A stretch of 64,000 nucleotides of DNA from the sequence record OP557970.1, one strand, 5' to 3'. This stretch comes from Escherichia phage ph0021. How positions within the stretch are numbered: position 1 is the first letter of the stretch; each line of letters opens with the position of its first letter. A program made the translations under genes and the position numbers. The notes under the pieces are model-generated. The model was not told the DNA's origin, did no database searches, and worked only from the letters and a program-made list of their open reading frames with translations. Positions 4,153 to 63,577 of this stretch are shown here, piece by piece.

Positions 4153-4156
4153 CAAT

Positions 4157-4186
4157 GGGGACCGAAAGGTCCCCATATTTTTATTT
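4157..4186 (+). terminator. rho-independent terminator after gene 54
   Basis: Perfect hairpin ggggaccgaaaggtcccc followed by T-run atatttttattt. Confidence 0.7.
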
Positions 4187-4471
4187 ACGGAATGAAATGA
4201 AAGCAGAAACTGAAGCAACTAAACTGTCTTCAATATAAACTTCAATTTTTACCGGAGCTTCTGACTCAAATTTACCTGTTACTACACCTTGGAAAATACT
4301 TTCAGTCTGTTCTGGCTTTGAAAAATTTTCAGAAGGAAAAATTCCGAACTTTTTATCTGTTCCAAAAATTTTGATAAATTCATCGTAAACTGCTTCATTA
4401 AAAGCATTATCAGCAGGAATAACTCCTTCAACTACAAGTTCTTGACCTAAAAAGCGCAAAGAAGATTTCAT
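4181..4471 (-). CDS. hypothetical protein (alt-downstream small ORF)
   Basis: 96 aa ORF with GAGGA RBS and its own early promoter. Confidence 0.45.
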   Translation of the reverse strand: MKSSLRFLGQELVVEGVIPADNAFNEAVYDEFIKIFGTDKKFGIFPSENFSKPEQTESIFQGVVTGKFESEAPVKIEVYIEDSLVASVSAFISFRK

Positions 4472-4501
4472 TTTGTGTTCCTCATGTTATGTCAGTAAGA
4501 C

Positions 4502-4532
4502 TACTATAACACAACACGAGGGACTTGTAAAC
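4502..4532 (-). promoter_or_regulatory. T4-type early promoter
   Basis: Minus-strand GTTTAC -35 (4527..4532) and TATAGT-like -10; part of a repeat shared with the alc promoter. Confidence 0.6.
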
Positions 4533-6589
4533 TACATTTTGAACTTTTTAGACATTCCGTTGATGTTAACCAAAGAAGTCAAGATTTGAGAAACTTCATT
4601 TTCCTCTTCTTTTGATTCTTCTACAAGGAATTGATTAAATCCAGCCATTGGACGAACTTCACCAGTTTCCATTAGATGGTCTCCATCATATACTGATTCT
4701 TCTAATTGTTCAGAAGGAGGAACGATTGTACCTTCGATTAGATACTTGTTATAAGCAGTTTCTTTCATAAAGTACGTACTTACTTTATTAATCTTCAGTA
4801 AAATTCCACGTGGTAGAATAACTTCAGCTTCTGACGGAAATCCTGATAAATGACCTGGAACGATAACTTTGATTCGCTCAGCTCCTTTAATTACCATACC
4901 CACGCTAGTTTCTGCATCTTCATTAGCATATGTAGAATGACTACCCATATGCATCAAATCTTCTGCATCAACGGAACCTTCTCCTTCACCAGAAAATACT
5001 GCGCCGGAATCATCTAGAGCCATATAGTTTTTACCATGCTCACCGAAGATATTTGGTTTAAGCGATGTGGATACGAAGTTCTTGAAATAGAACATTTTAT
5101 TTTCAATGTTATGACGCAAAGTTTTAAAGGTAACTTCTTGCCCACGGTAAAGTGTAGTTCCTGGAGGAAGAACTGATCCTTTGGCAAAGGCAGAATCTAA
5201 CGTCTCGATGTGCTTAATAGCTCGTTCCATGTATTCTTCACGGGTAGAATCTGGTTTACCCAAAAGGAACGAGTTCATTTCAACATATGAATCTGCACAA
5301 TAATCTTCAATTACATCAGATTCAGCCTGAGTCAGTCCTTTTGGAGCTACTTCGGTGCTTGCGTATTCATATGCCTGGGCAGCAGATTCATTAATCAATT
5401 TATAAATGCCATTCATGACAAATTGAATAATAGCTGTCTTTTCATCTGGTGTGGTTTTAGAACCTTTAACTAAATCATTAATAATTTTCTTAATAACATC
5501 AAAGCTATTAGAAATATTAATGTCAGCAAGATCGCTTAAAATTTTATCAGTTTTATAATCAAAGAATTCTTTATTCTTTAAATATTCTTGAGAACCTTGA
5601 TATGTTATATCGCTCTGCAACTTGATAGATGGATCACGTAAACGTGCATGGGCTAATGCAATATGATTTCGGAAACTTTCTAGTTCATAATCGTTAGATT
5701 TAAAACGAAAAGCACTTCTCATACCACCGATAGCTCCTTTGCTGAAGTTTGAACCAATCTGAATAACGCCAGAGTTCATTGGTCCTTCTGCTTTATATAC
5801 CGGAACTTTAGATTCAAATTCTTGATATTTCTTAGCAGCGAAGCTATCACCCTGAAGTGAAGCATCAACAGTAGAATATTGAGCTTGTGCTGCTAATCGA
5901 CGACTAATTTTAGTTTTCTGAATAACAGCTTGATCCGTGCGCTTATCATTTTCTAAAGCAATAGAAGCAGCAACAGCAACAGCTTTAGGAACAGCATTAC
6001 CTGTTTTAACGTCTACATAAACATCACCAACCTTTGATTCAACTTTTGTGAATAACTCGGTTGAAATAGGAGGTACACCTGGAATGTCTTCTAAATTGGC
6101 ATTTTTACGGTAAACCATAATATATGCGTACTTTTTATCATAATCCCAGATTTCCTTTAAAAGAACATATCGACCTGCTCCTTTAGTACGTACTAAACGG
6201 TCAGCAATAACTTGCATTTGACGAGCTGCGCCATTTGTTTTACTTTTTAGTACGCGGAATAGGCATGCATCAATTTTATACTGCTTCATTGTTTGAAGAG
6301 CAGTATCAAAAACAGCATTAATGACGCCAATTGGATTTCCACCCAAGTTTTTAAGCTTAACTAATGATAGTTTCTCATTAACACCTATCATTACGATATG
6401 CATCATTTTGTCGCCTGGCTTAACGTTTTTATTCGTATCACCGCCAGAGGTGTATGTACAAAATCTAAATCCAGGAAGCACGCTTTCTTCACCTGCTTGA
6501 ATAGCAAAAATTTGAGGTATTTTATGCTTAGGATTTAAGTTAACAACCGGCGCCGAAGCGCCGTCAAATAATTCTGTAATAAGTTCCAT
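4532..6589 (-). CDS. Alt-like ADP-ribosyltransferase, paralog 2
   Basis: 685 aa; N-terminal ~230 aa and C-terminus (YDGDHLMETGE) closely match the adjacent Alt; ART motifs LYRG, FVSTSL, EAEVILPRG; central region diverged. Confidence 0.8.
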   Translation of the reverse strand: MELITELFDGASAPVVNLNPKHKIPQIFAIQAGEESVLPGFRFCTYTSGGDTNKNVKPGDKMMHIVMIGVNEKLSLVKLKNLGGNPIGVINAVFDTALQTMKQYKIDACLFRVLKSKTNGAARQMQVIADRLVRTKGAGRYVLLKEIWDYDKKYAYIMVYRKNANLEDIPGVPPISTELFTKVESKVGDVYVDVKTGNAVPKAVAVAASIALENDKRTDQAVIQKTKISRRLAAQAQYSTVDASLQGDSFAAKKYQEFESKVPVYKAEGPMNSGVIQIGSNFSKGAIGGMRSAFRFKSNDYELESFRNHIALAHARLRDPSIKLQSDITYQGSQEYLKNKEFFDYKTDKILSDLADINISNSFDVIKKIINDLVKGSKTTPDEKTAIIQFVMNGIYKLINESAAQAYEYASTEVAPKGLTQAESDVIEDYCADSYVEMNSFLLGKPDSTREEYMERAIKHIETLDSAFAKGSVLPPGTTLYRGQEVTFKTLRHNIENKMFYFKNFVSTSLKPNIFGEHGKNYMALDDSGAVFSGEGEGSVDAEDLMHMGSHSTYANEDAETSVGMVIKGAERIKVIVPGHLSGFPSEAEVILPRGILLKINKVSTYFMKETAYNKYLIEGTIVPPSEQLEESVYDGDHLMETGEVRPMAGFNQFLVEESKEEENEVSQILTSLVNINGMSKKFKM

Positions 6590-6592
6590 GAT

Positions 6593-8686
6593 TTATCCTT
6601 GAACGAACTTGTAAGGCATGTTTGTAATATCTATGCAAGACGCAATAATTCCAAGAGATGATTCTACTTTCTGTTTAATATTTGATGAAACAAATGATGC
6701 AAAGTCAACTCTGTCTTCTATTTCAATATCACCTGTCATTGCAACCAATTCACCAGTTTCCATTAAATGGTCTCCATCATAGATTACCGATTCGGTGAGC
6801 TCTTCCGTGGTCATAACTTCAGCTTGAATGAGTTTTGTATTATTAGATGTTGTTCCGTCATTATTAGAAGCATCGGTTATTTTATTAACTTTGACCATCA
6901 ATCCACGCGGTAGAATAACTTCAGCTTCTGTTGCTATTCCGAGACTTCCTGGATATACAACATTAACTTTATGAGCTCCATCAATTGCCCATCCTATTTG
7001 AACTTTAACATATTCAGGATTTTCTTTATACGCTCTTATTTCGTTTGGATTAATAGTTATTCCTTCTTCATTTTTATCAACTGTTAATTCATTGCGAGCT
7101 TCTGGTTCTAAAAGACCAATACCAGCATGTGTGATTCCAAAACGTCCAAAAATGATAGGAGTTAAAGAAGTAGATACAAAATTTCTGAAGTAGAACACTT
7201 TATTTTTAACTAACGCTTCATATATAGGAGCAGTCATACTTTGAGCACGATAAACTGTAATGCCTTCTGGTATACGGTCACCATTTTCAAAAGCTGAATC
7301 TAAGTTATTTATAGCAGATTCAATTTCTTTTTCACTCATTACATCGTATCGTTCTGGATTGTAACGACCTAAAAGAAGATTATTGATGTCAGTATATCCT
7401 GAACCGCAATATTCTCTAATGCCACGCTTTTGTGATGGAGTATATTTAGAACCATCGCGGGCAATAGTAATATCAATCATTGGACCAGCACCAATTCCAG
7501 AAAAACTGTAAATCATTCGTTTGAGGAATTTAGTTTTTGCTGCGTTCCAGGAATTTTTAGTTATTTCTTCCCAGACTTCATCTGGTTGTCCTTTACGATT
7601 TTTATTATGATTAGCAAGCCATTTATCTTTATAATCTTCAAAGAATTGATTTACAGCTGCTGCGTATTTCTCTAAACATTTTATTGAAGTAGTTGGTTCA
7701 TTTTTAATTGCATTAAAAATTACTTCTTTAATTTTTTCTGAAACTTCACCGACTTGACTCATTGGAAAGAATTTATAATCATAGTGAAGTTCATCTGCCG
7801 TTCCTTCAGCAATAATTTTTGCTGCCTTTGTTTTAGAAGCTAATGAATTAATTCCAATTTTCATTTCTTCTGCTTCGGGAATTAAAGGTGCAGTAGCTGG
7901 TTTATTAAAATTGGCTGCTGTAGATTCATACTTCTGGAATAATTCACTTTCAAATCTAGAAGATTCCAATGACTGACTTTGTGCAATTGCTCTACGGGAA
8001 ATTTTAACTTTAACGATTACAGCTTGGTCAGAACGTTTATCATTTTCTTGTGCAATAGATGCTGCAATTGCTTCATTTTTAGTTACTTGAGCTCCAGTAT
8101 CTTTATTGATATAAACATCACCGACCTTCGATTCAACTTTAGTAAAGAGTTCAGTGCTAATTTCTGGAACTCCTGGAATGTCTTCTAATGATACATTTTT
8201 GCGATGTATAAGAATATATGCATACTTTTTATCGTAATCCCAGAGTTCCTTAAGAAGGACGTATCTGCCACCTGAACGACTACGGATAAGTCTATCAGCA
8301 ATAACTTGAATTTGTCGAGCTTGGCCAGCAGTTTTAGACTTAAGAATACGAAGCATGCAGGCATCAATTTTATATTGACGCATCGTTTGCATTGCAACAG
8401 TAAAAACTGAATTGATATAATTAATTGGGCTTGGACCAAGACCTTTTAATTTAGCAATTGAGCCTTTAGCAGTTAATGTAAAAGGAACAATATGCATCAT
8501 TTTATCGCCCATCTTTAAATCGCGATTAGTATCACCTCCAGATGTATAGGTACATAAACGAAAGCCTGGTTGTTCAATTGCATCATCAACATGAACTGAA
8601 AAAATTTGTGGTATTTTCTTCTTTGGATTTAAGTTTGTAATCGGAAGAGTAGTATCTTCGTCAAATAATTCTGTAATAAGTTCCAT
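6593..8686 (-). CDS. alt: Alt ADP-ribosyltransferase (head-packaged, modifies host RNA polymerase)
   Basis: 697 aa starting MELITELFDEDTTLPITNL; ART R-S-E motifs; located between 54 and 30 as T4 alt. Confidence 0.85.
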   Translation of the reverse strand: MELITELFDEDTTLPITNLNPKKKIPQIFSVHVDDAIEQPGFRLCTYTSGGDTNRDLKMGDKMMHIVPFTLTAKGSIAKLKGLGPSPINYINSVFTVAMQTMRQYKIDACMLRILKSKTAGQARQIQVIADRLIRSRSGGRYVLLKELWDYDKKYAYILIHRKNVSLEDIPGVPEISTELFTKVESKVGDVYINKDTGAQVTKNEAIAASIAQENDKRSDQAVIVKVKISRRAIAQSQSLESSRFESELFQKYESTAANFNKPATAPLIPEAEEMKIGINSLASKTKAAKIIAEGTADELHYDYKFFPMSQVGEVSEKIKEVIFNAIKNEPTTSIKCLEKYAAAVNQFFEDYKDKWLANHNKNRKGQPDEVWEEITKNSWNAAKTKFLKRMIYSFSGIGAGPMIDITIARDGSKYTPSQKRGIREYCGSGYTDINNLLLGRYNPERYDVMSEKEIESAINNLDSAFENGDRIPEGITVYRAQSMTAPIYEALVKNKVFYFRNFVSTSLTPIIFGRFGITHAGIGLLEPEARNELTVDKNEEGITINPNEIRAYKENPEYVKVQIGWAIDGAHKVNVVYPGSLGIATEAEVILPRGLMVKVNKITDASNNDGTTSNNTKLIQAEVMTTEELTESVIYDGDHLMETGELVAMTGDIEIEDRVDFASFVSSNIKQKVESSLGIIASCIDITNMPYKFVQG

Positions 8687-8709: not shown

Positions 8710-8717
8710 TATTTATA
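8710..8717 (-). promoter_or_regulatory. late promoter TATAAATA upstream of alt
   Basis: Reverse complement reads TATAAATA about 25 nt upstream of the alt ATG. Confidence 0.6.
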
Positions 8718-8722
8718 AAATT

Positions 8723-8740
8723 AAAGGCCCGAAGGCCTTT
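8723..8740 (-). terminator. UUCG-loop hairpin, terminator or RNA-stability element
   Basis: aaaggcccgaaggccttt palindrome followed on the transcript by a U-rich tract. Confidence 0.5.
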
Positions 8741-8742
8741 AA

Positions 8743-8928
8743 TTAATAGAGAGCTAAAAGAGTACGATATACTTCAAACTTTGGACCTTTTTCATATGGA
8801 TCAAATCTTTCCGTGAATTCATCATATGCTAGTTTATCTGGGAATTCAAGAATAACCTGCGATACCGCAGTGGAAACATCTCCACCTTCTTTTTGAGCCA
8901 CGACAATTGTTTCTAAGTAAGCTTTCAT
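8743..8928 (-). CDS. hypothetical protein
   Basis: 61 aa ORF, start overlaps ligase stop. Confidence 0.4.
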   Translation of the reverse strand: MKAYLETIVVAQKEGGDVSTAVSQVILEFPDKLAYDEFTERFDPYEKGPKFEVYRTLLALY

Positions 8929-12625: not shown

Positions 12626-12666
12626 AGTATTTTCCTCAGTAAGGGGCCGAAGCCCCTCATTTTATT

Positions 12667-19415: not shown

Positions 19416-19765
19416 TTAGAAAGGTCCTGGATGTCTTCTGCGAACTTGTTGAAGGAGTTGTTGATTTGTTTTTCAACCAATCCTGGCTTACGAGCCACCA
19501 CATCCGCCTTCTTTGCGTCTTTGCGCAGTTTTTCATTTTCACGCTCAATAGCAGCAATCGCCTCACGATTTTTATTATTCATCGCATCAATATAATTATA
19601 TTGATTTTTTAAATCATTTAATGCTAAAGCGTTTTCATTGGCCGTTTTTGTAATTTCTACAACAGACGTTTCTAATCCTTCAATTTTATTTTTTAAAATT
19701 AAAGAAGTTCCGCCTAATGCAATTACAATTAATAGCAAACCTGCTGTCGTATTACTTAATTGCAT
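19412..19765 (-). CDS. i-spanin (pseT.3 position)
   Basis: 117 aa; N-terminal TM helix AGLLLIVIALGGTSLIL then coiled-coil-like periplasmic domain. Confidence 0.7.
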   Translation of the reverse strand: MQLSNTTAGLLLIVIALGGTSLILKNKIEGLETSVVEITKTANENALALNDLKNQYNYIDAMNNKNREAIAAIERENEKLRKDAKKADVVARKPGLVEKQINNSFNKFAEDIQDLSK

Positions 19766-20262
19766 AAAGTTTTAATAACCTCTATAATATCGTCTTGAGA
19801 AAGACCGTTAATTAAAATATGATGTTCAGCTGGAGATTTAGAAATTTTAAAGCATGCCTCAACATCTTCTGCCATATCCGATGCACTACGATTTGGATTA
19901 CTAACCCCAAGGCGGTGTTTTCCCGTCAAAGGATTAACGATGATATAGCATTTGCAGCTATTGATATGAACATTGGGTTGAGTCTGATTAATGAACACTT
20001 CACAATCATACTTAGCGAGTTGATTTTCTAAAAAGACTTTCATCTCCTCAACCGCATCAGGAAGCATATCACGGGCTTGCTCAAGACGACGATTTCGATA
20101 TTCTTTAATGGTCGTTTTCCGCTTGACTTGCTTAGCTAAATCTTTCTTAAGATCGGTGATATATCCAACTCGACGATTTCCTTTGAATACAGAAATCCCA
20201 TCTGTAGTATCACCGTATGCTTCAACGACCATTTCAGTAGTAATAAGCTGCAAATCCATCAT
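19756..20262 (-). CDS. alc: Alc-like transcription unfolder/terminator
   Basis: 168 aa ORF at the T4 alc position between rnlA and pseT.3, T4 Alc size. Confidence 0.6.
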   Translation of the reverse strand: MMDLQLITTEMVVEAYGDTTDGISVFKGNRRVGYITDLKKDLAKQVKRKTTIKEYRNRRLEQARDMLPDAVEEMKVFLENQLAKYDCEVFINQTQPNVHINSCKCYIIVNPLTGKHRLGVSNPNRSASDMAEDVEACFKISKSPAEHHILINGLSQDDIIEVIKTLCN

Positions 20263-20291
20263 AAAGTCCTCATGTTATGTCAGTAAGACTA

Positions 20292-20320
20292 CTATAACAC
20301 AACATAAGGAACGTGTAAAC
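20292..20320 (-). promoter_or_regulatory. T4-type early promoter (alc)
   Basis: GTTTAC (20315..20320) and TATAGT-like -10; a 38 bp core is identical to 4479..4516. Confidence 0.6.
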
Positions 20321-20323
20321 AGC

Positions 20324-21911
<1,588 letters not shown>

Positions 21912-32078: not shown

Positions 32079-35000
32079 ATGGCCGAGATTAAAAGAAAGT
32101 TCAGAGCAGAAGATGGTCTGGACGCAGGTGGCGATAAAATAATCAACGTAGCTTTAGCTGATCGTACCGTAGGAACTGACGGTGTTAACGTTGATTACTT
32201 AATTCAAGAAAACACAGTTCAGCAATATGATCCAACTCGTGGATATTTAAAAGATTTTGTAATCATTTATAATAATCGTTTTTGGGCAGCAACGGATAAT
32301 ATTCCAAAACCTGCTGGAAATTTTAATAGAATTCGTTGGAAAGCATTACGTACTGATGCTGTATATACAACTGTATCATCTGGACCATATCAATTAAAAT
32401 CCGGAGAAGCAATTTCAGTAGATACATCAGTTGGCAATGACATTGAGTTTACTTTACCACCTTCTCCACTTGATGGAGAAACCGTAATAATTCAAGATAT
32501 CGGTGGAAAACCTGGCATAAATCAGGTTAAAATAAATTCTTCAAATCAGAGTATTGTCAATTTTAGAGGTGAACAGGTACGTTCAGTTCTAATGACTCAT
32601 CCAAAGTCACAGATGATATTCATTTTTAATAATCGTTTGTGGCAAATGTATGTTGCTGATTATAGCAGAGAAGCTGCGATTGTTACTCCATCGACTGCAT
32701 ATCAAGCACAATCTAATGATTTTATCGTGCGTAGATTTACTTCCGCTGCGCCGATTAATGTTAAGCTTCCAAGATTTGCTAATCATGGCGATATTATTAA
32801 TTTCGTTGATTTAGATAAATTAAATCCACTTTATCATACAATTGTCACGACATATGATGAAACAACTTCAGTACAAGAAGTTGGAACTCATTCTATTGAA
32901 GGCCGTGCATCGATTGACGGTTTCTTGATGTTTGATGATAATGAAAAATTATGGAGATTGTTTGACGGGGATAGTAAAGCACGTTTACGCATTATAACAA
33001 CTAATTCTAATATTCGTCCAAATGAAGAAGTTATGGTATTTGGTGCGAATAACGGAACAGCCCAAACAATTGAACTTCAGCTTCCAACCGATATTTCCAT
33101 TGGTGATACTGTTAAAATTTCCATGAATTACATGAGAAAAGGACAAACAGTTAAAATCAAAGCTGCCGGTGAAGATAAAATTGCTTCTTCAGTTCAATTA
33201 CTGCAATTCCCAAAACGCTCAGAATATCCGCCTGAAGCTGAATGGGTGACTGTTCAAGAATTAGTTTTTAACGGTGAAACTAATTATGTTCCGGTTTTAC
33301 AACTTGCTTATATAGAAGATTCTGACGGAAAATACTGGGTTGTACAGCAAAACGTTCCAACAGTTGAAAGAGTCGATTCTTTAAATAATTCTACTAGAGC
33401 AAGATTAGGCGTAATAGCTTTAGCTACACAAGCTCAAGCAAATGCTGATTTAGAAAATTCTCCACAAAAAGAATTAGCAATTACACCAGAAACATTAGCT
33501 AACCGTACTGCTACAGAAACTCGCAGAGGTATTGCAAGAATAGCAACTACTGCTCAAGTAAATCAGAACACCACATTCTCTTTTGCAGATGACCTTATCA
33601 TCACTCCTAAAAAGCTGAATGAAAGAACTGCTACAGAAACTCGTAGAGGTGTCGCTGAAATTGCTACGCAGCAGGAAACTAATACAGGTACTGATGATAC
33701 TACAATCATCACTCCTAAAAAGCTTCAAGCTCGCCAAGGTTCTGAGTCATTATCTGGTATTGTAACCTTTGTATCTACGGCAGGTGCTACTCCAGCTTCT
33801 AGTCGTGAATTAAATGGTACAAATGTTTATAATAAAAACACTAATAACTTAGTTGTTTCACCTAAAGCCTTGGATCAGTATAAAGCTACTCCAACACAGC
33901 AAGGTGCAGTAATTTTAGCAGTTGAAAGTGAAGTAATTGCTGGACAAAGTCAGGAAGGATGGGCAAATGCTGTTGTAACGCCAGAAACGTTACATAAAAA
34001 GACATCAACTGATGGAAGAATTGGTTTAATTGAAATTGCTACGCAAAGTGAAGTTAATACAGGAACTGATTATACTCGTGCAGTCACTCCTAAAACTTTA
34101 AATGACCGTAGAGCAACTGAAAGTTTAAGTGGTATAGCTGAAATTGCTACACAAGTTGAATTCGACGCAGGCGTCGACGATACTCGTATCTCTACACCAT
34201 TAAAAATTAAAACTAGATTTAATAGTACTGATCGTACTTCTGTTGTTGCTCTATCTGGATTAGTTGAATCAGGAACTCTCTGGGACCATTATACCCTTAA
34301 TATTCTTGAAGCAAATGAGACACAGCGTGGCACACTTCGTGTGGCTACACAGGTTGAAGCTGCTGCAGGAACATTGGATAATGTTCTAATAACTCCTAAA
34401 AAGCTTTTAGGTACTAAATCTACTGAAGCGCAGGAAGGCGTTATTAAAGTTGCAACTCGGTCTGAAACTGTAGCTGGAACGTCAGCAAATACTGCTGTAT
34501 CTCCAAAAAATTTAAAATGGATTGTGCAGAGTGAACCTACTTGGGCAGCGACTACTGCGATAAGAGGTTTTGTTAAAACTTCGTCTGGTTCAATTACATT
34601 CGTTGGTAATGATACAGCTGGTTCAACACAGCCATTAGAATCATATGAGAAAAATGGTTATGCAGTATCACCATATGAATTAAATCGCGTATTAGCAAAT
34701 TATTTGCCGTTAAAAGCAAAAGCCGTAGATAGTAATTTACTGGATGGTCTAGATTCGCTCCAGTTCATTCGTAGGGACATTGCACAAACAGTTAATGGTT
34801 CACTAACCTTAACACAACAAACGAATCTGAGTGCCCCTCTTGTATCATCTAGTACTGCTACGTTCGGTGGATCAGTTTCAGCAAATAGTACACTAACTAT
34901 TTCTAATACTGGAACAGCAACTCGTCTGATTTTTGAGAAAGGACCTCAAACTGGAACAAACCCGGCTCAAACGATGACAGTCAGAGTGTGGGGAAATCAA

Positions 35001-45010: not shown

Positions 45011-45045
45011 TTTAATCTCCGTTTCAGTTCATTTATTTGATAGGT

Positions 45046-45076
45046 CTATAGTATCATGTTTAAAGCAGAAGTAAAC
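45046..45076 (-). promoter_or_regulatory. T4-type early promoter for motA
   Basis: GTTTAC (45071..45076) and GATACTATAG -10 region on minus strand. Confidence 0.55.
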
Positions 45077-45343: not shown

Positions 45344-45389
45344 TTTTTGTATCTCCGGGTTGTTTGTTTCAGTTCATTTATTTGATAGT

Positions 45390-45422
45390 TGTATAGTACC
45401 ACAGTATGCTTTGGTTGTAAAC
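45390..45422 (-). promoter_or_regulatory. T4-type early promoter with UP element
   Basis: GTTTACA (45417..45422), TATACA-like -10, upstream ttttgtgaaaaaatttttgaaataaaaaa. Confidence 0.55.
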
Positions 45423-47855: not shown

Positions 47856-48071
47856 TTAATCGTCGCAGTCGACGCTCAATTCCCAAAACTCTTCTACGGT
47901 ATAAGTTTCAGTATCATTTTCAATACAGAAACGTTCATTACTATTATTTGCTAAAGTAGCGTTAACTGTCATTTTCTCGCTGGTGCTCTTAAGAGGTGAA
48001 ATACGAATTAACTGATCACCACTATCCAAGCAAAAAATTTCACCAACTTTTACATCTTTAAAGATTTTCAT
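47856..48071 (-). CDS. hypothetical protein (ndd.x)
   Basis: 71 aa ORF. Confidence 0.35.
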   Translation of the reverse strand: MKIFKDVKVGEIFCLDSGDQLIRISPLKSTSEKMTVNATLANNSNERFCIENDTETYTVEEFWELSVDCDD

Positions 48072-49906: not shown

Positions 49907-49944
49907 AATTTTTCCTTAAAACAAAAGGGCCGAAGCCCTTTATT

Positions 49945-50139
49945 TTACTTGAATTGTGCAATTCTTTTCTCTAGACATTCAGCATAAGATTTCATTGAGA
50001 TGAACTGTGAAAGTAGCAGTTCTTGCTCAACTACACTAACTGTTAGAAACTTTGCGCTTTCTAAAAATTTACTCAGTGCATTAATTTTGAGCATTAATTG
50101 ATCGTATTCTTCTTTTACTCGTGCTTGATAACCTAACAT
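49945..50139 (-). CDS. hypothetical protein
   Basis: 64 aa ORF flanked by GNRA/UUCG hairpins. Confidence 0.35.
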   Translation of the reverse strand: MLGYQARVKEEYDQLMLKINALSKFLESAKFLTVSVVEQELLLSQFISMKSYAECLEKRIAQFK

Positions 50140-50167
50140 AATTTTCCTTAGTTAAGGGCCGAAGCCC

Positions 50168-51106
50168 TTATTTAAATTGTTCAGTAACGTCTTCAACTAC
50201 TTCGTATTGGCAGGTACGCATTTTAGCGTCGTTATAATCAATCGGAATTGATACCACATCGCGAGGATGCACTTTAACTTTTACGACTCGGCTGGTTGAA
50301 CTGCCAAAGTGACGAATATAAGATTTAGAACACACATGCAGACCACGAGAACAAGTTTGTGTATCATCGTCATTCACACGAGTACGTGGCATTTTAACTA
50401 CTTTACCCGGACTGTTATCAAAGGTATTTGAGTGACAGTCAAAGTAATTGCTGCGAACTACTTTCCAAGCATAGAAGTAGCCATCTTCTGTAATTTCAAT
50501 ATCGTTTGCTACCAAGAAATCAAAGAGTCGAGATACCGCTTTTTGGCTTGGGTTTTCCAGCAGATTTTCCAAGAACGGAAAATAAAATTCAAAGTTTTCG
50601 CCTTTTTCCATCGAGTCAAGAATACGATCAACCAAACCAGACCGCAATTCAATATTTTGATAGAACAAGCTTCCACCTTCAATTCGAACATCGCCGGAAA
50701 TATATTTTTCAACAGCGCGACGAACATTAATTTTTTGTGCTGCTTCTTCCAGCTTATCCGCTACAAGCAGATTAAGAATTTCCTGGAAGTTTGAATGAGT
50801 ATTAGGAGTTGCGTTATAAGTTACACCGTCAACAGTAATTGAAATGAATTTTTTAGATGCATTCCAAATAATGTCAGATTTAGCAACTGGAGCAATAACT
50901 GCATCGCTATTAACTTTAACTGTAATATCACCACTAATAGTAACTTTAGAGCGTTCTGCTTCTTCAGCATTTTTCAAAACACGACGGATTGTGTCAACCG
51001 ATACACCTTGCCAATCAGCCAATTCCTGCTGGGTGTAATTACCACTTGAATACAGTTTAACAATTTCAGCTTGTTCGTTTTTGGTCAGGCATTTAATATT
51101 GTACAT
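50168..51106 (-). CDS. rIIB: rIIB
   Basis: 312 aa, T4 rIIB length, directly downstream of rIIA. Confidence 0.9.
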   Translation of the reverse strand: MYNIKCLTKNEQAEIVKLYSSGNYTQQELADWQGVSVDTIRRVLKNAEEAERSKVTISGDITVKVNSDAVIAPVAKSDIIWNASKKFISITVDGVTYNATPNTHSNFQEILNLLVADKLEEAAQKINVRRAVEKYISGDVRIEGGSLFYQNIELRSGLVDRILDSMEKGENFEFYFPFLENLLENPSQKAVSRLFDFLVANDIEITEDGYFYAWKVVRSNYFDCHSNTFDNSPGKVVKMPRTRVNDDDTQTCSRGLHVCSKSYIRHFGSSTSRVVKVKVHPRDVVSIPIDYNDAKMRTCQYEVVEDVTEQFK

Positions 51107-53535: not shown

Positions 53536-53565
53536 TTATACCACATCCTTGTGGTAAAGTAAACT
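53536..53565 (-). promoter_or_regulatory. T4-type early promoter
   Basis: GTTTAC (53560..53565), 17-18 nt spacer, TATAAT on minus strand. Confidence 0.6.
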
Positions 53566-55384: not shown

Positions 55385-55450
55385 TTATCCTCGTTTGGTT
55401 TCGGGAATATTATACTCCGGTAATCATAAAGCTAAAGGCCCGAAGGCCTT

Positions 55451-55711
55451 TTATTTAAAACGAATAGTTGAATCCTTAAAGAACAGTCCAGAACATACTG
55501 TTCCTTCTACTTTCTGCCCAGTAGGTCCAATAGCACGAAATCCAGTATGTTGGAAATCATTTTCAGAGCAACCGAACCAGTTATATCCAGTGATTTCAAT
55601 ATTAGTAAAACCGCTTGAAGACAAAACTTTGGTTGCATTATCAGCATCAGTACATCCTACTAAAGACACTACTAATACTAATGCTGCAATAGAACGATTA
55701 ATATATTTCAT
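55451..55711 (-). CDS. small lipoprotein
   Basis: 86 aa; signal peptide with lipobox LVGC. Confidence 0.5.
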   Translation of the reverse strand: MKYINRSIAALVLVVSLVGCTDADNATKVLSSSGFTNIEITGYNWFGCSENDFQHTGFRAIGPTGQKVEGTVCSGLFFKDSTIRFK

Positions 55712-63545: not shown

Positions 63546-63577
63546 CTATCATATCACCGTTAGAAAGGAAAGTAAAC
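63546..63577 (-). promoter_or_regulatory. T4-type early promoter for modB
   Basis: GTTTAC (63572..63577) and TATGAT -10 on minus strand. Confidence 0.5.

Follow-up and report, generated by a model that had tools for sequence, protein, structure and literature searches.

In the 64,000-nucleotide stretch of DNA from Escherichia phage ph0021 that was analysed here (sequence record OP557970.1, hereafter the window), two minus-strand genes lying 15.8 kb apart, alt.-3 and alc, are preceded by almost the same promoter and leader, which raises the question of why two such distant copies have stayed so alike and what the shared sequence does. The reading to which we assign a probability of roughly 0.6 is that they are copies of a single composite cassette belonging to the T4 early class, homogenised by gene conversion, in which access to the Shine-Dalgarno (SD) sequence depends on the promoter from which the RNA was started.

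With regard to the repeat itself, the 38-mer TCCTCATGTTATGTCAGTAAGACTACTATAACACAACA, which the original prediction had described as an exact repeat, was recovered by exact search as a direct repeat with exactly two + strand occurrences (4479-4516 and 20267-20304), and none of 100 dinucleotide-preserving shuffles matched it. A third copy was sought in the window with up to three mismatches, and none was found. A repeat search of the window against itself also recovered the pair (family D13) and extended it to 54 nt at 93% identity (4479-4532 / 20267-20320), the extension running through GTAAAC, i.e., GTTTAC on the minus strand. The claim that this identity exceeds the background of other early promoters held as well when 18 early-promoter-like sites in the window were compared, namely the two cassettes and 16 others with the same architecture. 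From the -35 to the SD, the two cassettes are 86% identical, compared with a mean of 45% (standard deviation 8) for all 153 pairs and 69% for the next best pair, and their likeness continues 28 nt beyond the -10, through the SD.

A second promoter-leader repeat was noticed in the window at 45021-45056 / 45366-45401, 345 bp apart, belonging to the minus-strand promoters with -10 elements at 45053 and 45398. It shows 89% identity over the 28 nt after the -10 (TACTATa.a.ctatcaaataaatgaactgaaac) and lacks a strong hairpin; the likeness of the two cassettes is thus not unique in kind. Repeat families D1, D3 and D7 represent further related promoter groups.

Read along the minus strand, both copies consist of GTTTACA, 17 nt, TGt, TATAGT, agtctt, a predicted +1 A with ctgacataacat, GAGGA, 4-7 nt and ATG. 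The individual elements and the genes on either side are as follows.

4526-4531, minus strand: -35 element TTTACA of copy 1 (GTTTAC = 4527-4532), overlapped by the TAG stop codon of the alt paralogue at 4532-4534.
4518-4521, minus strand: anti-SD CCUC in the spacer of copy 1, which pairs with the SD GAGG in read-through RNA (minimum free energy (MFE) structures, pair table).
4503-4511, minus strand: TGt plus -10 TATAGT of copy 1 (hexamer 4503-4508), from the consensus scan.
4496, minus strand: predicted transcription start A of copy 1, from promoter geometry (7 nt after the -10; 25-nt leader).
4479-4483, minus strand: SD GAGGA of alt.-3, by sequence reading.
4181-4471, minus strand: alt.-3, the gene behind copy 1 (96 amino acids, PHROG 1739, function unknown; start codon 4469-4471).
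4532-6589, minus strand: alt paralogue, a second full-length gene for an Alt-like ADP-ribosyltransferase, upstream of copy 1 and source of read-through RNA.
20314-20319, minus strand: -35 element TTTACA of copy 2 (GTTTAC = 20315-20320); the rnlA stop codon TAA lies at 20324-20326.
20291-20299, minus strand: TGt plus -10 TATAGT of copy 2 (hexamer 20291-20296), from the consensus scan.
20284, minus strand: predicted start of the alc mRNA, from promoter geometry (22-nt leader).
20267-20271, minus strand: SD GAGGA of alc, by sequence reading.
19756-20262, minus strand: alc, the gene behind copy 2 (168 amino acids, inhibitor of host transcription).
20324-21484, minus strand: rnlA (RNA ligase 1), upstream of copy 2, into which its transcripts would read.

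The gene that had been called the alt-downstream open reading frame is therefore alt.-3, and its upstream neighbour is a second full-length alt paralogue and not alt itself. Both promoters score 10/12 against the sigma-70 consensus (TTTACA-17-TATAGT) and carry the extended -10 TGn, and they fit the early promoter consensus TTTACW-N17-TAYWAT of the T4/PST phages given in the literature (PMC2839356, PMC4122927). In the record of Yersinia phage fPS-65, both positions are annotated as 'predicted early promoter', and a time-resolved omics study of T4 places alc and alt.-3 in the early class for both RNA and protein (PMC9697503 supplement). It is thus near certain that both copies are T4-type early promoters located before alt.-3 and alc, as the originally proposed order of ribosome-binding site, leader, -10 and GTTTAC -35 upstream of a minus-strand gene had implied. 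The A-tracts upstream of the -35 (taaaaagttcaaaatgt; aaaaaatttatccc), where an A/T-rich UP-like region would be expected, lie within upstream coding sequence and are not common to the two copies. Moreover, the leaders contain an AUGAGGA motif, in which an AUG overlaps the SD (4484-4486 and 20272-20274, minus strand); it is also found in the leaders of the promoters with -10 elements at 53540 and 17004, recurs in many early leaders of the window and in alc and alt.-3 leaders of other genera, and in alc opens a four-codon mini open reading frame (AUG AGG ACU UUA UGA) that overlaps the start codon.

Neither copy is peculiar to this genome. The window represents a T4-like phage (Tequatrovirus), in which both loci are 100% identical to GenBank OR584013 ('Pseudomonas phage PsgM02F') and 97-99% identical to hundreds of Tequatrovirus genomes from Escherichia, Shigella and Yersinia phages. 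T4 (NC_000866) carries both copies, 53/54 identical, and a blastn search with the cassette returned 1086 places in 588 phage records, which corresponds to about 498 Tequatrovirus genomes with two copies. Because both copies occur across the whole genus, they are neither recent nor an artefact, and the suggestion of recent copying was not upheld.

In order to account for the likeness of two copies of that age, we compared 13 genomes or contigs with both copies; loci with the leader pattern in IMG/VR and in a metagenome collection (7 and 8 loci) were too few to carry a test at population scale and served as extra haplotypes. No difference is fixed between the two loci, both have the same alleles at four polymorphic sites, and the commonest 54-mer is identical at both. 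Copies differ on average at 2.36 positions between loci, compared with 2.54 and 1.69 within them. The window carries a linked three-site spacer haplotype, TTCCTTA, at alc, and T2 and one metagenome phage have it at alt.-3; PE37 has CTCA at both loci, and a change of AGT to AAT just after the -10 was found at either locus. Taken together, these patterns make it likely that ectopic gene conversion has homogenised the two copies, and they point to a conversion that still continues. The pair had also been put forward as a substrate for recombination. The shared polymorphisms and the lack of fixed differences fit an exchange between the copies, whereas no deletion or inversion between the repeats was found in about 500 genomes. 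Genes 30 and 31, which are essential in T4, would be deleted by a reciprocal crossover; such an event would be lethal, and only conversions would survive.

The origin of the shared unit was approached through other genera. In Dhaka-, Mosig-, Marfa- and Kanagawavirus, the spacer of the alt.-3 promoter forms a short hairpin of another kind and the SD is not sequestered, and since the anti-SD design appears ancestral at alc and is absent from alt.-3 elsewhere, an alc-type cassette as donor is the most economical explanation. Sequence identity was tried as an indicator of the donor locus and rejected, as the Tequatrovirus 54-mer shows 67-74% identity to every one of the outgroup cassettes, which therefore do not discriminate. 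A related cassette in Mosigvirus (TATAGTAGTCCTACTGAAACATGAGGAACACAAAATG; L009-L011, locus at about 1500-1560) shows 87% identity over 46 nt and precedes an unrelated 66-amino-acid ndd.1-like gene next to ndd. Its spacer is changed, leaving a shorter hairpin (GUAGGA/UCCUAC, -13.6 kcal/mol) that does not cover the SD, and it has the 15 nt from the SD to the ATG in common with the Tequatrovirus alt.-3 copy despite the unrelated genes. Homology of the served genes was rejected, given that the Mosigvirus 66-amino-acid protein is unrelated to Alt.-3; the window homologue of its gene (47856-48071) lacks such a promoter. The presence of a related cassette before an unrelated gene indicates that the unit has moved between gene contexts.

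What the cassette might do is suggested by its pairing potential. The spacer together with the -10 (CCCUCGUGUUGUGUUAUAGUA) is complementary to the leader together with the SD (UACUGACAUAACAUGAGG), so that RNA passing through the whole cassette can form a hairpin in which the SD GAGG pairs with a CCUC located a few bases after the -35. The two elements and the folding of the corresponding 64-nt sense RNAs are listed below.

4480-4521, minus strand: hairpin element of copy 1, with 5' arm 4502-4521, loop 4498-4501 and 3' arm 4480-4497 (18 bp, one 2-nt bulge).
20267-20310, minus strand: hairpin element of copy 2, whose spacer variant UUCCUUAUG still pairs with CAUGAGGA.
Window copy 1: -23.0 kcal/mol, z -4.95, 0/200 shuffles as stable.
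Window copy 2: -21.4 kcal/mol, z -3.94, 1/200 shuffles as stable.
T4 alt.-3 copy: -23.0 kcal/mol, z -5.7, 0/200 shuffles as stable.
T4 alc copy: -24.4 kcal/mol, z -5.0, 0/200 shuffles as stable.

Among all natural 64-nt windows of the strand, copies 1 and 2 rank at the 0.16th and 0.29th percentile of MFE, respectively. The antisense RNA (-17.2 / -12.3 kcal/mol for copies 1 / 2) and the DNA (-9.6 / -9.0 kcal/mol) fold more weakly than the sense RNA because of its G-U pairs, which points to the sense RNA as the place where the hairpin would have its role. Furthermore, the 3' arm has the predicted +1 (4496 / 20284) as its second base, and with a start inside the hairpin the helix is possible only in RNA begun upstream of the promoter. 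In the computed ensembles, the probability that the SD is unpaired was 0.001 in RNA begun 200 nt upstream, whereas in own-promoter RNA it was 0.2 for alt.-3 and 0.7 for alc. A structure of the leader RNA alone, as initially suggested, was examined and discarded, since the own-promoter leader folds at 0 kcal/mol and neither the 18-nt leader nor the first 62 nt of the mRNAs fold better than shuffles, the latter being less structured than these; the real pairing is that of the spacer and -10 with the leader and SD, in upstream-started RNA only. A cleavage site for RegB was likewise considered, and the SD GAGGA without GGAG does not implicate RegB in this genus (sequence reading and PMC3014915). 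Neither hairpin is followed by a U-run, a terminator scan gave no match at either cassette, and Rfam gave no matches over the whole window at gathering score, the cassette itself yielding only a meaningless microRNA match (E 0.3).

Hairpins of this kind were also predicted at other early promoters of the window. Of the 18 early promoters, 9 rank among the lowest 5% and 5 among the lowest 1% of natural 64-nt MFE windows, and strong hairpins enclose further minus-strand -10 elements at 63553, 58352, 57243, 48539, 27411, 17004 and 13074. The strongest of all (58352, -30.6 kcal/mol) is formed between UCCUCGGUUAG..., located shortly after the -35, and ...CUAACCGAGGA, which includes the SD. The genes downstream of hairpin promoters include those for a Mod-like ADP-ribosylase (63521) and a MotB-like protein (57193).

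We also asked whether the pairing has been conserved. Within Tequatrovirus, 33 cassette copies comprising 17 haplotypes were compared, and pairing is retained in 98% of pair cells. At five pairs, one side varies without loss of pairing (C-G to U-G, G-U to A-U or G-C). Two other pairs are disrupted in a minority of haplotypes, with one such change improving the -10 to TATAAT, and four variable sites fall in the loop or bulge. Overall, 14 of the 54 positions are polymorphic, and the 3' arm (leader and SD) is almost invariant. No double-sided changes occur among these copies, and the within-genus test alone consequently has little power.

The comparison across lineages was more informative. In six others, alc is preceded by GTTTACA-N17-TAnnAT inside an SD-sequestering hairpin with a differing stem, with z-scores from -2.85 to -7.07. 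The arms at alc are the following.

Karamvirus: 5' arm UCUCCAUUUGG, 3' arm CCAAAUGGAGA.
Jiaodavirus: 5' arm UCCUCAUCAG, 3' arm CUGAUGAGGA.
Dhakavirus: 5' arm UCUCCUCAU, 3' arm AUGAGGAGA.
Kagamiyamavirus: 5' arm UCCUCAUUUUGUUG, 3' arm CAACAAAAUGAGGA.
Klebsiella phage Clarke_MM3 (unclassified): 5' arm CCUCGUUUGUU, 3' arm AACAAACGAGG.
Marfavirus: the same design, weaker.

Each of the seven alc lineages has a 3' arm that stops precisely on the SD and an anti-SD (CCUC/CUCC) directly after the -35, and at least 9 helix positions, anchored at the SD, have changed on both sides. These pairs were counted on per-sequence folds anchored at the SD, as a MAFFT alignment mis-registers the 3' arms. In every lineage a stop codon of the upstream gene lies 6-10 nt before the anti-SD, e.g., as a TAG overlapping GTTTACA or as TAAnnGTTTACA. 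On the evidence of these sequences, the comparison suggests that the anti-SD design at alc has been kept across at least seven lineages through compensatory changes. A protein-binding site, the other shared element that had been envisaged, found no pointer in this comparison, in which the alc cassettes of other genera keep the architecture and not the sequence.

From these observations we propose the following sequence of events. In the ancestor of Tequatrovirus, the alt.-3 promoter would have been overwritten by an alc-type cassette, the copied patch being bounded by the conserved GTTTACA and CATGAGGA motifs, and short-patch gene conversion would thereafter have kept both copies homogenised. 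RNA polymerase starting at the cassette promoter would begin inside the hairpin and produce an mRNA without the 5' arm, whose SD is open, while RNAs coming from rnlA or from the alt paralogue would carry both arms, fold the 18-bp hairpin and bury the SD. In that case, translation of Alc and Alt.-3 would be limited essentially to the immediate-early transcripts from their own promoters, and their synthesis would end at the shut-off of the early promoters although read-through RNA persists. Such a promoter-gated translation of alc and alt.-3 is plausible. A wider extension, to which we hold only tentatively and at somewhat less than even odds, is that T-even-type immediate-early genes, with alc as the clearest, may commonly be under promoter-gated translation, such that only promoter-born RNA would be translatable, as the mirror image of the late-only switch of the lysozyme gene e; if true, this would also account for the need to copy promoter and leader as one unit.

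Several points weigh against this proposal. The gating is derived purely from in silico folding, and positions 4496 and 20284 are predictions, no mapped T4 early transcription starts having been found in the accessible literature. In the own-promoter RNA of alt.-3, the SD is only about 20% unpaired owing to a weak pairing with codons 3-5, and the SD of the predicted own-promoter RNA is likewise paired in Marfavirus and Clarke_MM3. Mosigvirus, in which the alc start overlaps the rnlA stop, and Acinetobacter phage Ac42 have no such cassette at alc, and gating is therefore not indispensable. With regard to conversion, the shared polymorphisms are all transitions and their positional coincidence alone has P = 0.03; as identity is uninformative, the direction from alc to alt.-3 is read from the architecture alone. 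Finally, ribosomes that terminate 6-10 nt before the anti-SD could open the helix, which would result in coupling and not in a block.

Other explanations for the likeness of the copies fared worse. For the view that the repeat is particular to this genome, through a recent duplication, by chance or as an assembly error, there was nothing to draw on beyond the high identity itself, and this explanation was refuted by the shuffles and by the presence of both copies in T4, T2, T6-like phages, about 500 independently sequenced Tequatrovirus genomes and metagenome contigs, so that its probability is practically nil. Purifying selection alone, without conversion, acting on an exact sequence that is required as an operator or as an initial transcribed sequence, would be in line with the near invariance of the 3' arm in the 33 copies and with the related leaders (TATAGTAGTCCTACTGA..AACATGAGGAACACAAAATG) before an unrelated gene in Mosigvirus. 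We nevertheless regard it as improbable, given the polymorphism of more than a quarter of the cassette positions within the genus (14/54), the alc cassettes of other genera that differ in stem and loop with the same pairing, the occurrence of the same three-site haplotype at different loci in different phages, and the lack of any palindromic operator-like motif beyond the RNA-biased (G-U containing) stem.

With respect to the hairpin, it might instead be a transcriptional attenuator or terminator, or a 3'-end stabiliser for the RNA of the upstream gene, with the SD lying in the stem incidentally. Such a role has been proposed for the stem-loops of published early-promoter units, which in RB49/phi1 lie between the -35 and -10 or overlap the -10; one of them, placed in a transcriptional fusion, lowered the downstream lacZ to the same extent as rrnB T1 (PMC2839356). 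In T4 the temporal class changes across each cassette, since rnlA is early as RNA and late as protein, and alt, alt.-1 and alt.-2 are middle as RNA (PMC9697503 supplement). It also agrees with this possibility that four of the clearest hairpins among the 9/18 early promoters of the window that have one (27411, 17004, 13074, 57243) exclude the SD. The missing U-run and the null terminator scan at the cassettes speak against it, and a terminator alone would not be expected to have, in each of the seven alc lineages, a 3' arm that ends on the SD and an anti-SD after the -35; we consider this explanation unlikely, yet one to be taken seriously. Translational coupling, in which the base of the stem would be melted by a ribosome completing rnlA or the alt paralogue and output would be proportional to upstream translation, appears rather unlikely. 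The 6-10 nt that separate the upstream stop from the anti-SD in every lineage can be reached by the footprint of a terminating ribosome, but so close a spacing is possibly mere genome compaction, and the T4 proteomic classes, early for Alc and Alt.-3 versus late for RnlA and Alt, argue against tight coupling (PMC9697503 supplement).

Beyond the cassettes, genes 54 and alt.-3, which are convergent, have between them a GC-rich hairpin with a perfect stem of 9 bp.

4155-4176, both strands: hairpin ATGGGGACC gaaa GGTCCCCAT, with T-runs on both strands.

It is likely a bidirectional terminator, which would make alt.-3 a one-gene early unit; between rnlA and alc, the scan gave no terminator-like site. 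Hairpins of the form GGGCC-GAAG-(G)CCC / GGCCC-GAAG-GCC, flanked by A/T runs, recur at 8710-8744, 12629-12666, 49911-49949, 50141-50178 and 55421-55455 (families D8 and D9) and are presumably the standard intrinsic terminators of this phage. Upstream of alt.-3, two full-length genes for Alt-like ADP-ribosyltransferases stand in tandem on the minus strand (4532-6589 and 6593-8686; 685 and 697 amino acids), with about 72-84% identity in patches. Both are present in T2, HY01, PE37 and others, whereas in T4 the downstream one survives only as the remnants alt.-1/alt.-2. Direct repeats of 29-41 nt at 33507-34405 (families D6 and D14; 63-80% identity, spacings of about 110-680 nt), in-frame-looking and inside a large + strand coding region, are probably a repeated motif of a tail-fibre gene. 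As for the closest record, OR584013.1, the stated host is Pseudomonas coronafaciens, yet the sequence is a typical Tequatrovirus, 97-99% identical to coliphages, and the host assignment looks doubtful. Across its ends, this record seems to be longer than the window by about 127 bp, a surplus suggestive of a terminal overlap in the assembly as deposited.

The repeat itself is ordinary for T4-type phages, being formed by two known T4 early promoters. What gives it interest as a probable natural case of ectopic conversion, between 54-bp cassettes 15.8 kb apart, is its bearing on how T4-type phages shuffle and homogenise regulatory modules. The noteworthy part is the conserved anti-SD/SD complementarity around an early promoter. 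The complementarity of spacer and SD suggests that some immediate-early proteins may be limited to early times by translation and not only by transcription, in a phage whose shut-off of early gene expression has been described as incompletely understood (PMC2988021). A description of early promoters inside SD-sequestering hairpins was sought in the accessible reviews and not found; the older literature may mention the dyad symmetry or the promoter pair.

Among known systems, ordinary T4 early promoters consist of UP, -35 GTTTAC, TGn and -10 (PMC2988021). The cassettes resemble them in the -35, the spacer length, the TGn, the -10 and the early class of the genes served, and differ in that the similarity of the pair reaches 28 nt past the -10 through the SD (86% versus a mean of 45%). 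The cassette belongs to the published class of promoter-early stem-loop (PeSL) cassettes, defined by an early promoter with a stem-loop between the -35 and -10 or overlapping the -10, followed by an SD and an ATG (PMC2839356, Arbiol et al. 2010; PMC4122927, Comeau et al. 2014). As in PeSLs, the early promoter has a predicted stem-loop enclosing the -10, with an SD and an ATG at the 3' end, at repeated loci, and the repeat ends at GAGGA, 4-7 nt before the ATG. Recombination among PeSL copies has been described, its crossovers falling between the -10 and the SD/ATG (PMC2839356); at the cassettes, the 0 fixed differences, the 4 shared polymorphisms and the 3-site haplotype would fit conversion. 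Unlike PeSLs, there are two copies only, 15.8 kb apart and with essential genes between them, and the events would be conversion and not mini-circle excision or gene shuffling. PeSLs lie in hyperplastic regions next to variable ORFans; alc is conserved across genera, whereas alt.-3 is a small gene of unknown function beside the variable alt-paralogue region. The stem is also long (18 bp), its 3' arm is the SD and a U-tract is missing, and a translational role therefore fits better than the terminator role that has been proposed for PeSLs.

A translational role of this type is known from the T4 genes e, soc, 49 and I-TevI, in which long transcripts can fold so as to bury the SD, and the DNA encoding the 5' arm contains a proximal promoter whose own transcript, lacking that arm, is translatable (PMC3014915). 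The cassette is like these genes in that, according to the predicted fold and start, the SD is paired in the long transcript and the own-promoter transcript lacks the 5' arm. It differs in that the inner promoter is early, whereas theirs is late (or middle) and delays translation, such that the cassette would be their mirror image, with translation confined to the first minutes. Because the inner promoter is early and the later class that marks that family is absent, the cassette would work like e, soc, 49 and I-TevI without being a member of their group.

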